A DNA stretch of 64,000 bases from an uncultured cyanobacterium (GCA_963710605.1 CAVQBA010000004.1:1216001-1280000), one strand, 5' to 3'; shown: positions 38,847 to 44,349, counted from the stretch's first letter. The notes: generated from the letters alone by a model not told the origin. Translations and numbers: made by a program.

Positions 38847-39743
38847 CTAACATCCCGCATCTCCTACTACATCAAATTGCTGAGTTTTATCTTCTATTAT
38901 CACAGTTATTGTACCATTAGGAATATTAACCGATTCAATTTCACCTTTAGCACCCAAAGTCACATCGACTTCCACCAATATTCGATCGTCTTCTGTAGTA
39001 AAAACTTGATTTGTTTTTTGTCCGTAAAATTCTTCTCCTTGAGATGATTTTCTGATCAGTTTAGTTAACTTACCATCAAAAGACATAAATGCGTCAGTAT
39101 CTCCTTGAGTATCTTCTATTCCATTAAAGAATAAAAATCCTCTTTGATTAGTTTGGGCTTTTTTATCTAAACTCATACCACAACCGCCTCCACCCGCATC
39201 GAATAATTCATCGGTGGTGAATCTCGTAATTTCGATCGATGAAGAAGTTGTTTTATCTTCAAGAGTAACATTAGGTATTTCGGTTAGTAGTGTGTCACCA
39301 CAATAAATCATGACGGAGCGATATTCATTGATTGTGGTGGGCATGGTGTAATTCACTTTTGTCGGCGTAATTACTTGAATAGCAACGCCTTCTGGGGGAA
39401 TAGGTGAAAAAGAAATACGTTGTGCTGGTGGTTGTCGTCGATCGAGTATTCCGGGTTTCCATTCAACTTGATAGTTAGGAGTCGGCATATCCACTTCTCC
39501 TGATATATTTAAACGCAATTCACCATCCCCAACATTATCTATCCAAGCTTGCCAGTTACGACTTTGGGTTACTGTACAAGAAGAATTATTATTGATAGTT
39601 TGCACAATTTCGTTATTAGAAGATGTTAAGTTTTCCTCTGTTTTAGCACCTGTTATTTGTGAATTAGGATTATCACATCCAGCCATTACCAAAGAGAGAA
39701 AAATTAGGCAAGTTAAAAAGTAAGAATTAATTTTTTTAAACAC
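38847..39743 (-). CDS. Hypothetical lipoprotein
   Basis: Signal peptide with lipobox 'VMAG-C'. Confidence 0.7.
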   Translation of the reverse strand: MFKKINSYFLTCLIFLSLVMAGCDNPNSQITGAKTEENLTSSNNEIVQTINNNSSCTVTQSRNWQAWIDNVGDGELRLNISGEVDMPTPNYQVEWKPGILDRRQPPAQRISFSPIPPEGVAIQVITPTKVNYTMPTTINEYRSVMIYCGDTLLTEIPNVTLEDKTTSSSIEITRFTTDELFDAGGGGCGMSLDKKAQTNQRGFLFFNGIEDTQGDTDAFMSFDGKLTKLIRKSSQGEEFYGQKTNQVFTTEDDRILVEVDVTLGAKGEIESVNIPNGTITVIIEDKTQQFDVVGDAGC

Positions 39744-39956
39744 GATCGACTCTTAAGATTGATATTTCTTTTGTTTAGATAACTTTTTATCATGATGTCG
39801 GCAGAATACCCTTATGTCCTTGACTTAGGGATGAATGCCGACAAATCAATTGAGGGCGATTAGCCCATCCCCTCATTAAAAAAAATAAGTGAGAAAATTC
39901 AATTTTGTCACTTATAATTAAAATGATTAAAAAATACTGAATAATCAGTAATTCTC

Positions 39957-42900
39957 ATGATATTAGCTTTTTGCTACAAATTAAAACCTAGTTTGTCCCA
40001 ACAAAGGACGATCGCTCATTGGATGGCAATGTTGAGGTCGCACTACAACTATTGCCTAGCCGATCGAATTGGTAGTTATGAAGAAGTTCGATCGCCTAAA
40101 CTAGGAGAATATTGCGACTTGCGAACTAAGGCAGTTTGTTCTCCCTTAAGCTGTGCCATCTCTAAAAATTCTAATATGGGCGAACCATTTAAAGGTAATG
40201 GTAAAAGACGTAATGCCTATGAAATGCAATCTTCAGAACTACCTATTCTTAAAAAGTCTCGCCCGTGGTATGCCACCATTAGCTCAACTGTCCTTCAACA
40301 AAATCTTCGACGATTGAATGATGCCTTTGAGGGGTTTTTCAATGGTAAAGGCTATCCTGCTTTTAAAAGGCGTAATAAGTTTAAAAGTTTTTCCTATGCC
40401 CCAAACCAAGTTCAGTTTAATCCGCAAAAAGTCTATTTGCCCAAAATAGGATGGATGCGGTTTTTCAAGTCTAGGGCTTTTCCTAATGGGTTCACTCCCA
40501 AGACTGTTACCGTTAGGCAAAAAGCCGACGGGTACTATATATCTGTACGCTTGGAAGACAAAACTGTCCCTGACTTTGAACCAATGGAAATCGATCGAGT
40601 AAAATCGATTGTCGGAATTGACTTAGGAGCAAGACCTCATAAGTTATGTTGTTTGTCCACAGGAGAAAATATCCCTAATCCCATGTTTGCCAAACAATCT
40701 AGTAAACGTCGAACATTACTACACCGTAGGGCTAGTCGTAAAGTGAAAGGCTCAAAAAATCAAAAAAAAGCCTACCAAAAATTAAGCAAATTTGAACTTG
40801 GAGTTATAAATCAAAGAAATGATTACCAGTGGAAAGTGGGACACCAGCTAGTACGCAAGTTTGATGCGATCGTCATGGAAGCCTTGCAAATTCAAAATAT
40901 GACTCGTCGATGCAAACCAAAACTAGATGAGCAAGGGAAATACCTTAAAAATGGACAATCGGCTAAACGGGCATTAAGCCGCTTAATCCAAGATTGTAGT
41001 TGGGAAAAACTAAAGGGCAAAATACGTCAAGTCGCTGAAAAGTGTGGGCGTATTTTTCTAGAAGTAGAACCTAAATTTTCCTCTCAAACCTGTTCGTCTT
41101 GTGGGTTCAAAAGTAAAGAAAACAGAAAGAAAGAATCATTTTTGTGCCTAAACTGTGGAATGTCTCATGATGCGGATACCAATGCGTCGCTCGTATTAGC
41201 AACTCGTGGAATTGAAAAACTTGGTATTAGTGAAAATACCCTATGGGGGGTCACCCCAAAAGTTACGGCTACCTCTGAAACCTCAGAGGTGACTAGAAAT
41301 AGTCAGGAGATCAAATCAGTGGCGTTGGCGACTGAGCCTAGCAACCCTCTACAACGTGCGATTCGTTCTTACGAAACCTTTATCTAAAGGTGGATGTGAG
41401 GCTTTCAGTTAAGTAACTCCCCCTGAGTTGTGCTCGCACTTTAATCCTTAACTGAATTAATAACTTGTAATTCATGGAGGTGAATCAGTATCCTAGAACA
41501 TAAGTCCTCCCGACCTTGTGCGGGTTGAAAAGCATACAGCGTCCCCACTCGTGAGGGTGGTGAGAAGTTTCCCCAATTTCTGAGGTGACAACTCAGAGGT
41601 TGAAGCGGGAGTAAAAGCGGATAGTAGCGATAATTGCTGAAAACGCCTCACCGCAAGCAAGTGTTTTATAAGCGACCCAGGACTGAGATAATCTCAGGGA
41701 AATGGACATCGTGGGGTAGATAATCAAAGTATCTATTGAAGCGTCTCAAAGGGTTAGCAAGGGATATAAGCTAGTGGATAATGCCACACCTTGCATTCCG
41801 AAATAACGGAAGAATAATAATATGTGGTTCTGTTGTAAAGTCACATCGCACAATTAATTCAAATAGGCGTAAAGGTACACCCTAAAGAACACAAATCAAC
41901 TGGTTGCACCGTCGCAACCAGCAATGGAATACAGGAACGAAGTAAACCAATATAAGCCCCAGAATAACTGGTAGGTCGTCAAACCGTATGCTTAAGTTGG
42001 GAAAGGATGGGTCAAGAAGCTAATGCCTAGCTCGAAAACACGAGCATTGCTGGAAAAGAGAAGGGGTAACGCCCAGGATACGCAGACGTGACTCGCAATA
42101 TATCAAATGCTAAAGGTGTCAGTAGTAGTAAATATGTCTAATACAGAATCGAATCAGAATACTGTGGAATGGGAAAATATCGATTGGCGTAAAGTCGAAA
42201 GATATGTCTTTAAGCTACAAAAACGCATTTACGCTGCTTCACGTCGTGGTGAAGTTAAGAAAGTACGCAAACTCCAAAGAACCCTTATGAGGTCTTGGTC
42301 TAATAAGGTACTTTCGGTCAGAAAGGTAACACAGGATAACAGAGGTAAGAAGACGGCAGGAGTGGATGGAGCAAAAGCACTTTCCCCAGAAGAACGTATG
42401 AACCTCGTAGGTCAACTAAAAATCACAGGAAAAAGTAAACCAACTCGGAGAGTATGGATACCGAAACAAAATAGTGGTGAAAGAAGACCATTGGGAATAC
42501 CAACTATATATGACCGAGCCTTACAAAACACTGTTAAATCAGCGATTGAGCCAGAATGGGAAGCTCGTTTTGAGTCAAACAGCTATGGTTTTAGACCAGG
42601 ACGGTCAGTCCACGATGCTATCAAGCAAATTAAAAATGCAATTCAAAAGAAACCAAAATACGTTTTGGATGCCGATATTGCAAAATGTTTTGATAAAATC
42701 AACCACTTATCCTTACTTAAGAAGCTCGGATACACGGGTAAAATCAGGCAACAAATTAAAGCCTGGTTAAAATCTGGGGTCATTGACCAAAAGGTTTTTA
42801 CTACTACGTCTGAGGGTACACCGCAAGGTGGGGTTATTAGCCCTTTACTCGCTAATATTGCCCTCCACGGGATAGAAATTATGTTAAAGGAGTTTGTCAA

Positions 42901-44130
42901 AACATTAGACTTGCGAAGAAAAGACTATCCAAGCAGTCAAATAAGTTGGCAGAAGAAAGTTCGTTCGCTGTCTTTTATAAGATACGCAGATGACTTTTTA
43001 CTAATACATGAGGACTTAAAAGTGGTCCACAGATGCAAAGAATTAATCTCTGAATGGTTATATGACATTGGACTAGAACTAAAACCATCAAAAACCAGAA
43101 TCACTCATATACTCAAACCAGAATTGAGCGAGGATAGAAAAGCTGGGTTTGATTTCCTCGGACATCATATACAGCAATATCCAATAAGTAAGTACCAAAG
43201 TGCGAAGCTAAATGGAAAACCACTAGGCTTTAGGACTCTCATAACACCAAGTAAGGAAGCACGTTTAAAGCATCAGAAAGATATGAGGGACATTGTGAGA
43301 AAACATAAAAACTCTCACCAAGCAAAATTAATCAAGAAGTTAAATGAGTGTATAAGAGGTTGGTGTAATTACTATGTCAACTCAGACGCTCAAACTGTTG
43401 GTGAATTTTCCAGACAAGACCACCTTGTATATCAAAAACTTAGAACTTGGGGCAAACGGAGGTGTAAAGGAAGCCTCAATAAAGCACATAAGAAATACTG
43501 GTGCAAAGTAGGTAATAATAACTGGGTATTTGCAGTCAATCAAGAGACGAAGAATCCCTTGAGGTTACTAACACATAGTGAATATAAATGTAGTAGTACA
43601 AACTATGTGAAAGTTAAAGATGACGTAAGCCCCTTCAACGGTGACTTGGTTTACTGGAGTACACGGATGGGCAAAAGCCCAGAGATGCCAAATCGAAAAG
43701 CGAAATTGCTTAAGATTCAAAAAGGGGTCTGCCCTTGGTGTCAACTTAGATTTCGTGAAGAAGATGTATTAGAAGTTGACCACATTCAAGCTCGTGCCTT
43801 GGGAGGAAAGGACACATACAAAAATCTTCAACTACTTCACGGTCATTGCCACGATGAAAAAACTGCCTTGGATATGAAGGAAATTTGGAAGCACAAGACT
43901 CTCAGTGATTTTTTAAAATCTAATAATATATTGGAAAATTACAATTGGTACTGGGATGAAAACGATATTCTAATAACCTTCAAGAAAATAAAGTGAAGTT
44001 CAATAACAAGATAGATATGTTGAGTAGCCGTGTGAAGCGAAAGTTTCACGCACGGTTTCGGAGGAGAGGAGTAGAGTGGAAACACTCACTTCGACTCTAA
44101 CTATCGTTGTTTGAGTGGATGGACGGCTGA
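39957..44130 (+). CDS. tnpB: RNA-guided endonuclease TnpB, join(39957..41355,44102..44130), 475 aa after splicing
   Basis: HTH N-terminus, RuvC D (GIDLG), E (VMEAL), D (DADTNAS), Zn finger CSSC/CLNC; spliced C-terminus EPSNPLQLSLFEWMDG*. Confidence 0.88.
41356..44101 (+). mobile_element. Group IIB self-splicing intron (2746 nt)
   Basis: 5' GTGCG; DV AGCCGTGTGAAGCGAAAGTTTCACGCACGGTT (44026-44057); DVI with bulged A at -8 and 3' AAC; EBS1 GTTGTA (41832-37) pairs IBS1 TACAAC; EBS2 AGGGTT (41750-55) pairs IBS2 AACCCT. Confidence 0.92.
42107..43996 (+). CDS. ltrA: Group II intron-encoded reverse transcriptase/maturase with HNH endonuclease
   Basis: RT N-domain 'WRKVERYVFKLQKRIY', 'RPLGIPT', 'GTPQGGVISPLLANIAL', YADD, X domain 'RGWCNYY', HNH 'CPWC...EVDHI...NLQLLHGHCH'. 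Confidence 0.93.
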   Translation: MLKVSVVVNMSNTESNQNTVEWENIDWRKVERYVFKLQKRIYAASRRGEVKKVRKLQRTLMRSWSNKVLSVRKVTQDNRGKKTAGVDGAKALSPEERMNLVGQLKITGKSKPTRRVWIPKQNSGERRPLGIPTIYDRALQNTVKSAIEPEWEARFESNSYGFRPGRSVHDAIKQIKNAIQKKPKYVLDADIAKCFDKINHLSLLKKLGYTGKIRQQIKAWLKSGVIDQKVFTTTSEGTPQGGVISPLLANIALHGIEIMLKEFVKTLDLRRKDYPSSQISWQKKVRSLSFIRYADDFLLIHEDLKVVHRCKELISEWLYDIGLELKPSKTRITHILKPELSEDRKAGFDFLGHHIQQYPISKYQSAKLNGKPLGFRTLITPSKEARLKHQKDMRDIVRKHKNSHQAKLIKKLNECIRGWCNYYVNSDAQTVGEFSRQDHLVYQKLRTWGKRRCKGSLNKAHKKYWCKVGNNNWVFAVNQETKNPLRLLTHSEYKCSSTNYVKVKDDVSPFNGDLVYWSTRMGKSPEMPNRKAKLLKIQKGVCPWCQLRFREEDVLEVDHIQARALGGKDTYKNLQLLHGHCHDEKTALDMKEIWKHKTLSDFLKSNNILENYNWYWDENDILITFKKIK

Positions 44131-44349
44131 GGTAATTGGCTGTCAGAATTCCCATTGTCTAAGGCGATAGCCGTACGGTGGGGTTCTTCAACTAATCATA
44201 ATATTTACAAGACACGATCGATTTAATAATTGTTCCGAAAGCTTAATTAATTCTCTTTTTCTCATCGTATTACTTTTATTGATTACATTAAATTGTTCTG
44301 TAATCTTTCTTTAAGAGATGGTAGTATTTTTAGAATATCGATCGTTTTA

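Follow-up and report, generated by a model that had tools for sequence, protein, structure and literature searches.

A group II intron within the tnpB gene and the inferred guide-RNA scaffold of a cyanobacterial IS200/IS605 element

In a 64,000-nt stretch of DNA from an uncultured cyanobacterium (GCA_963710605.1, CAVQBA010000004.1:1216001-1280000; hereafter the window), an insertion sequence (IS) of the IS200/IS605 family is interrupted by a group II intron close to the 3′ end of its tnpB gene. The insertion point falls between columns 128 and 129 of an RNA alignment of related elements, which is the apical loop of helix 5 in a structure that we infer to be the scaffold of the TnpB guide RNA (omega-RNA). 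The composite is probably one selfish element nested in another, and the dependence of the host element on splicing a by-product of the insertion. Cas12 descends from TnpB proteins with their guide RNAs, which also serve as compact genome editors, and the natural control of guide-RNA production is an open topic.

The open reading frame (ORF) of tnpB as it stands in the genome (39957-41387) encodes 476 amino acids (aa) with the Pfam domains HTH_OrfB_IS605 and OrfB_IS605 and a Cas12f1-like TNB domain. The protein aligned to the TnpB of ISDra2 (chain 8bf8_A) with an E-value of 1.1e-32. Residues D222, E308 and D405 sit in three motifs aligned to ISDra2, in columns that we take to be its RuvC catalytic residues, and a CxxC...CxxC zinc finger lies at residues 379-400. 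An earlier reading of the window, made from the sequence only, had described a TnpB with all RuvC residues, in agreement with this alignment. All the folded domains and catalytic residues are encoded 5′ of the intron junction, and the protein looks intact by sequence. Its closest homologues are cyanobacterial, for example in Cyanobacterium aponinum (62-63% identity), and the identity to the best intron-free homologues was 64%. By score, the top match in the PDB was a protein described as an “AI-designed RNA-guided nuclease” (9yyg_A, E-value 5.9e-35), slightly above the natural ISDra2 TnpB.

The intron begins with GTGCG and ends with AC, following the GUGYG and AY pattern, and carries domain V with the catalytic AGC as well as domain VI (Table 1). 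Its intron-encoded protein (IEP), which combines reverse transcriptase (RT), maturase and HNH endonuclease domains, is open and has YADD at residue 293 in the RT. Two 6-nt segments of intron domain I, the exon-binding sites EBS2 and EBS1, are exact complements of the adjoining intron-binding sites IBS2 and IBS1 at the end of exon 1. In an alignment with a related intron (L001), EBS2 and EBS1 fall in variable patches between conserved flanks, as exon-binding loops should. Two intron-free copies of the IS, L083 and L093, have the 12 nt of IBS2 and IBS1 unchanged, and most other copies depart from them at one or two positions. These features substantiate the complete group II intron of about 2.75 kb with RT and HNH domains that the sequence-only reading had described. 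The Rfam families for domains D1-D4 gave no match for the intron, and EBS3 was not located. With regard to intron class, the label IIB of the sequence-only reading is putative; the one pointer to it is a match to the plastid ndhA/ndhB domain V model at 44.4 bits, below the cut-off of 53. Among related introns, L001 is the nearest: its IEP is 75% identical, and it occupies an unrelated site outside tnpB. The L001 locus gave no domain V match, and no fit was found between the exon-binding sites of L001 and its exon.

Joining position 41355 to 44102 in silico keeps the reading frame: codon 467 is completed and is followed by nine codons and a stop, and the junction lies 90 nt before the TCAA of the right end. 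The positions proposed earlier, 10 codons before the true tnpB stop and about 90 nt before the right end, are thereby confirmed. The joined tail carries the motif Q-L-x-L-F-(E/Q)-W, which is present in 35 of the 39 best aligned homologues. The exceptions are P0017, P0020 and P0031, which end earlier, and P0027, which diverges; P0034 has one residue more. When the last 456 nt of exon 1 were searched in 60 related genomes, matches were found in 11 of them. In all the fetched loci that hold the exon 1 tail (28 of 28), the intron is absent at the junction and conserved sequence runs straight across it; exon 2 directly abuts exon 1 by BLAST in nine of these loci. Blastn searches of the window's own genome assembly (3.93 Mb, 33% GC, 7 contigs, 84.9% complete by marker genes) with exon 1, the intron and exon 2 returned the locus itself and only weak partial matches, and by these searches both the IS and the intron are single-copy. 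The intron-free copies that the sequence-only reading had proposed to look for thus exist in relatives and were not found in the own genome. An assembly artefact was ruled out, since a chimeric join would not give exact EBS/IBS complementarity together with the in-frame return of a conserved motif.

Twenty-six distinct 3′-end sequences of related elements were obtained, and 18 intron-free ones were aligned for a covariation model. The eight left out, all from one genome (G041; L095, L100, L103, L105 and L107-L110), were near-duplicates, were cut by contig ends or had a 24-nt insertion. RNAalifold predicted six helices with 41 pairs for the 18 relatives, 19 of the pairs showing compensatory changes. 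Standard pairs occupied 98.4% of the cells, compared with 87.4 ± 0.7% in column shuffles, and none of 500 shuffles reached the observed value on any of five measures, although kinship among sequences can beat such shuffles. When the partners were slid by 1-3 columns, pairing dropped to 25.7-43.5%. Given the slid controls and the variety of pair types, a conserved RNA structure is the clear reading of this alignment. It begins within tnpB, covering the final ~110 nt of the coding sequence, and extends to the right end of the IS. Omega-RNAs of TnpB systems have such a layout, running from the 3′ end of tnpB through the right end and then into a flank-derived guide. By covariation and by analogy with this layout, we infer that the structure is an omega-RNA scaffold, which would be bound by TnpB.

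Exon 1 holds helices 1-4 together with the 5′ strand of helix 5, and exon 2 the rest of the structure. A contiguous scaffold therefore needs splicing, and the split scaffold of the unspliced RNA had been correctly noted in the sequence-only reading. After the exons were joined in silico, 39 of the 41 pairs could form in this element. Furthermore, the recognition sequence of the intron (IBS2 and IBS1) doubles as the 5′ strand of helix 5. We propose that a functional-looking mobile group II intron retrohomed into this 12-nt site near the 3′ end of a tnpB-only element. The constraint on the RNA would keep the helix 5 strand nearly invariant across the IS family, and a nearly invariant site in dispensable mobile DNA would therefore be a good and harmless homing site. 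The unspliced transcript would encode a TnpB with every domain and a foreign tail of 10 residues, and 2.7 kb would separate its scaffold halves, with EBS2 and EBS1 occupying the 5′ strand of helix 5. Maturase-assisted splicing would then restore the native tail and a contiguous scaffold of ~200 nt, followed by a flank-derived guide starting at 44192. Judging from this anatomy, the formation of a normal TnpB-RNA complex at this locus should require splicing.

The sequence-only reading had also stressed the wrong protein tail of the unspliced form. The 10 foreign codons are there, but every domain is encoded upstream of them and P0017, P0020 and P0031 have no junction motif. Because some homologues lack the native tail, the foreign tail is probably harmless and may matter little to the protein. 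The tail motif looks constrained by RNA rather than by protein.

A different possibility is that splicing is not needed, the unspliced precursor or scaffold halves held together by the intron assembling with TnpB. The intron occupies an apical loop, that of helix 5, which speaks for this possibility. In addition, four of the G041 copies (L100, L107, L108 and L110) have an extra hairpin-like insert of ~24 nt in the region of the helix 5 3′ strand, i.e. in the same hairpin and beside the intron site of the window, so that the helix 5 region tolerates extra RNA. However, the 5′ strand of helix 5 in the precursor should pair with EBS2 and EBS1 instead, and a 2.7-kb ribozyme with its bound protein far exceeds any tolerated insert seen. 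We regard assembly without splicing as very improbable.

A degenerate 27-nt pattern of the spliced junction, searched by exact pattern match in 401 genomes of the phylum (mostly of non-photosynthetic lineages), was found only in the own genome, and it had 0 matches in metagenome_contigs. This bears on the central proposal of the sequence-only reading, that the locus is a splicing-gated RNA-guided nuclease element. In its strong form, the proposal is that of an evolved gate: the composite would be a selected unit, in which the level of maturase or the conditions for splicing control the TnpB-guide complex, and two homing systems would be coupled. The split scaffold is rejoined by splicing only, both ORFs are open with intact motifs in a genome of low GC content (33%), and a second intron of the same genome, inserted between a scaffold and its guide (see below), hints at recurrent targeting of guide-RNA regions. 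Against a gate, the junction has a single occurrence in the genomes and contigs searched, the intron is missing from each of the 28 related IS loci examined, and its nearest relative sits in another site. Related introns also hit tnpB at many positions, which fits opportunistic colonisation. An evolved gate is accordingly improbable, and the gated reading is not supported, given the single occurrence in that search and the position of L001 outside tnpB. Of the underlying proposal that an active TnpB ribonucleoprotein depends on splicing, the anatomical part is retained, since a contiguous scaffold needs ligation; the adaptive part is not. The composite looks like a one-off insertion.

With the IEP as the query, 80 loci of related introns were fetched. 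Segments similar to tnpB were found in 17 of them, and in about 14 these segments adjoin the intron boundary on the same strand, as judged from distances to IEP or domain V matches. At L067, L015 and L046, tnpB resumes 2-7 nt after domain VI. At L002, the intron lies right after the third RuvC motif, ~205 nt before the right end of that element. The positions hit in tnpB correspond to residues ~106-110, 325-337, 373 and 412. From these sequences, introns in tnpB appear to be common among cyanobacteria. At L004, L055 and L046 (contigs of Microseira and Symploca), one tnpB is seemingly split by two or more group II introns (two each at L004 and L055); the first tnpB segment is closely preceded by a domain V match, and there is a further intron after a later segment.

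The genome of the window has 12 domain V matches, and two further introns associated with IS605 elements were found on its contigs C5 and C6 (Table 1). The C5 intron separates the guide-RNA scaffold of its host element from the would-be guide. Eight nucleotides of its domain I, at intron nt 231, are the complement of exon positions -13 to -6, and intron-free sister copies of the C5 element on C1, C4 and C6 have an uninterrupted IS605 end. The two positions, i.e. a scaffold hairpin loop in the window and one base before the right end on C5, could be cited for a broader hypothesis: cyanobacterial RT-HNH introns may have repeatedly specialised on homing sites in the scaffold or at the right end of IS200/IS605 elements, where constraint on the RNA leaves the sequence almost unchanged, guide maturation then depending on the maturase. 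We consider such specialisation unlikely. If true, it would amount to a three-way conflict or partnership among a retroelement, an RNA-guided nuclease and a Y1 transposon. On C6, ~3.6 kb of the region recurs in inverted orientation at 943019-946439, where it reaches the contig end, with 89% identity. Remnants of group II introns were also seen in clusters at C5:11000-30000 and C2:4400-9600, and some 20 kb of C5 accounts for five of the 12 domain V matches together with numerous IEP fragments. These clusters suggest nested or tandem intron insertions.

The boundaries of the composite were compared with those of related copies. TTATCA is found just 5′ of the left end in five of five copies (this element and four close relatives, L082, L083, L093 and L099), and the sequences upstream diverge. 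At the right end, conservation in relatives stops at TCAA (44188-44191). The left-end hairpins have a folding energy of -17 kcal/mol (z = -3.95; none of 200 shuffles equally good). The right-end hairpin is weak alone (z = -1.44; 21 of 200 shuffles), and its position matches a clearly paired hairpin of the relatives. With the Pfam domains of TnpB, the hairpins uphold the assignment to an IS200/IS605 element with end hairpins. A stretch similar to ...ACTATAAT... occurs in relatives at the same place as the promoter-like site 5′ of tnpB. An empty target site of the IS was not recovered from five related genomes, in which the upstream flank had no match and the downstream flank matched only distant coding sequence (66-70% identity). 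No Y1_Tnp match for the transposase TnpA was found within the element, and therefore the element is non-autonomous. Elsewhere in the genome there were 12 Y1_Tnp matches (7 strong), the nearest among the matches listed being at C4:1208292, ~47 kb off. Excision of IS608-type elements falls with element length, and by analogy the 2.7-kb insert may also lower the mobility of the IS.

Some of these features could be taken to mean that the locus is an inert relic, i.e. that the intron splices poorly or the IS is silent or immobile, so that the guide RNA is in effect knocked out in a decaying locus. Both elements are single-copy, tnpA is absent and Y1 genes lie elsewhere, and the right-end hairpin is weak. 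Such composites do decay in this genome, as the frameshifted IEP of the C5 intron attests. A relic is nevertheless a rather unlikely account of this locus. The ORFs of 476 and 629 aa are uninterrupted; no damage is seen in the TnpB, RT and HNH motifs, in domain V or in the EBS/IBS pairs; and all but two of the scaffold pairs are retained.

Several points weigh against the nesting of two selfish elements as proposed here. It is odd that an insertion without a second example should match its site perfectly over 12 nt. If the site were cognate for homing, other copies should be occupied as well, and there were none in the genomes and contigs searched; the assembly is incomplete, and further copies could be absent from it. 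Conservation of the site could be partly at the protein level. The identity of the omega-RNA comes from covariation and analogy, with a putative 5′ end, and no Rfam family for a guide RNA was matched in the window or in five intron-free relatives.

Table 1 Features of the composite element and of two further IS605-associated introns of the same genome (G000). Positions are those of the window unless a contig is given.
Feature	Position	Strand	Basis or remark
Whole composite, tnpB-only (IS1341-type) IS200/IS605 element with intron	~39790..44191	+	left boundary ± ~7 nt
Left-end subterminal hairpins	39793-39848 and 39851-39875	+	DNA fold; homologous hairpin in L082, L083, L093 and L099
Promoter-like site 5′ of tnpB	39889..39918	+	consensus match only; 10/12 hexamer matches, TATAAT box
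tnpB exon 1, codons 1-466 and first base of codon 467	39957..41355	+	Pfam, ISDra2 alignment, homologue identity
5′ part of inferred scaffold, 112 nt: helices 1-4 and helix 5 5′ strand (41345-41354)	41244..41355	+	covariation model mapped
IBS2 (41344-41349) and IBS1 (41350-41355)	41344..41355	+	exact 6+6 nt complements in intron domain I; overlap helix 5 5′ strand
Group II intron, 2746 nt	41356..44101	+	GTGCG start, RF00029 at 3′ end, exons adjacent in relatives
Read-through of tnpB frame into intron in unspliced RNA, 10 foreign codons and TAA	41356..41387	+	ORF list, translation
EBS2	41553..41558	+	exact complement of 41344-41349; intron nt 198
EBS1	41832..41837	+	exact complement of 41350-41355; intron nt 477
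IEP (RT, maturase, HNH endonuclease), 629 aa, open	42107..43996	+	Pfam RVT_N, RVT_1, GIIM, HNH
Intron domains V/VI	44023..44101	+	Rfam RF00029, full model 1-77, 53 bits (gathering score 40 bits), E 1.4e-07
tnpB exon 2, last 9 codons and TGA stop (44128-44130)	44102..44130	+	joined frame
3′ part of inferred scaffold, 90 nt, to TCAA	44102..44191	+	covariation model, folding
Helix 5 3′ strand; helix 6; right-end hairpin	44107-44118; 44122-44144; 44145-44187	+	covariation model mapped
Predicted guide segment after right end	44192..44211	+	inferred only, from TnpB/omega-RNA architecture and right-end boundary
Second IS605-associated intron, 2338 nt, IEP frameshifted	G000:C5:127216-124879	-	one base before right end of full tnpA-tnpB IS605
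IS605 host of C5 intron	C5:124879-128967		tnpA 128605-128967 (+ strand); tnpB 128564-127257 (- strand)
Third IS605-associated intron, domain V 937362-937439	G000:C6:936000-946439 region	-	adjoins tnpB-like sequence; tnpA 940190-940546

The locus is a natural construct, in which a 2.7-kb group II intron, its exon-binding sites matching the exon, interrupts a scaffold hairpin loop. With it one can ask whether splicing can put a guide RNA together, whether the loop tolerates a large cargo, and how two selfish elements with different homing mechanisms coexist. More generally, transposon ends that are constrained as RNA can act as conserved sites where retroelements land without harm. Should the insertion be no more than a one-off, the composite is a curiosity, in line with what is known of bacterial group II introns, which habitually reside inside other mobile DNA. 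What is new here is the covarying six-helix RNA from 18 relatives and the placement of the intron inside the inferred scaffold.

The TnpB of the window is homologous to that of ISDra2 (PDB 8bf8, 8exa and 8h1j), and the layout of the RNA is alike. Unlike in the window, the ISDra2 scaffold is uninterrupted, and the sequence similarity between the two is only remote. The Ll.LtrB intron sits in the relaxase gene of a lactococcal conjugative element. The arrangement resembles Ll.LtrB in that a group II intron lies in a gene of another mobile element whose function would depend on splicing. The interrupted product is a protein in Ll.LtrB, whereas the functionally important one here would be a structured guide RNA.

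RT-HNH group II introns have been reported in IS200/IS605-family transposons of cyanobacteria including PCC 7107 (Kapitonov, Makarova, Koonin 2016, PMC4810608), where a single sentence of the passage concerned raises these insertions as a possible origin of the HNH domain in IscB. The phylum and the nesting of an RT-HNH group II intron in an IS200/IS605 element are the same as here. That paper predates the discovery of omega-RNA, and the passage does not place the introns relative to a scaffold, although Fig. S9 of the paper may show their positions. With the same reservation about that figure, an intron within a guide-RNA scaffold was not found in the literature searched on group II introns with TnpB or IS605. 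The statement in the sequence-only reading that the arrangement had not been characterised thus needs to be divided: RT-HNH introns in IS605 elements were in print in 2016, and the position in the scaffold was not found in that literature. In a further report, an IS605 element lies beside an intron and is not interrupted by it (PMC7923331).

IStrons, in which a group I intron and a tnpB-bearing IS200/IS605 element are fused (Tourasse et al. 2014, PMC4227781; Zedaveinyte et al. 2023, preprint, PMC10690162), are among the closest known systems, and the preprint, in the parts consulted, deals with group I introns only. According to the published IStron work, splicing of the group I intron and formation of the guide RNA compete. 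As in IStrons, a single transcript here contains both a self-splicing intron and a TnpB guide-RNA element, and splicing and guide formation would interact at the 3′ end of the transposon. No group I intron was matched by Rfam in the window (gathering threshold) or in 39700-44300 (E up to 5), and the intron lies inside the IS, which supports the earlier claim that the nesting is the reverse of that in IStrons. If RT-HNH introns were indeed specialised on such sites, the association would be analogous to IStrons with a distinct mechanism. In IStrons the IS is inside a group I intron and the whole unit is spliced from host genes, whereas in the window a group II retroelement is inside the IS and interrupts the guide RNA itself.

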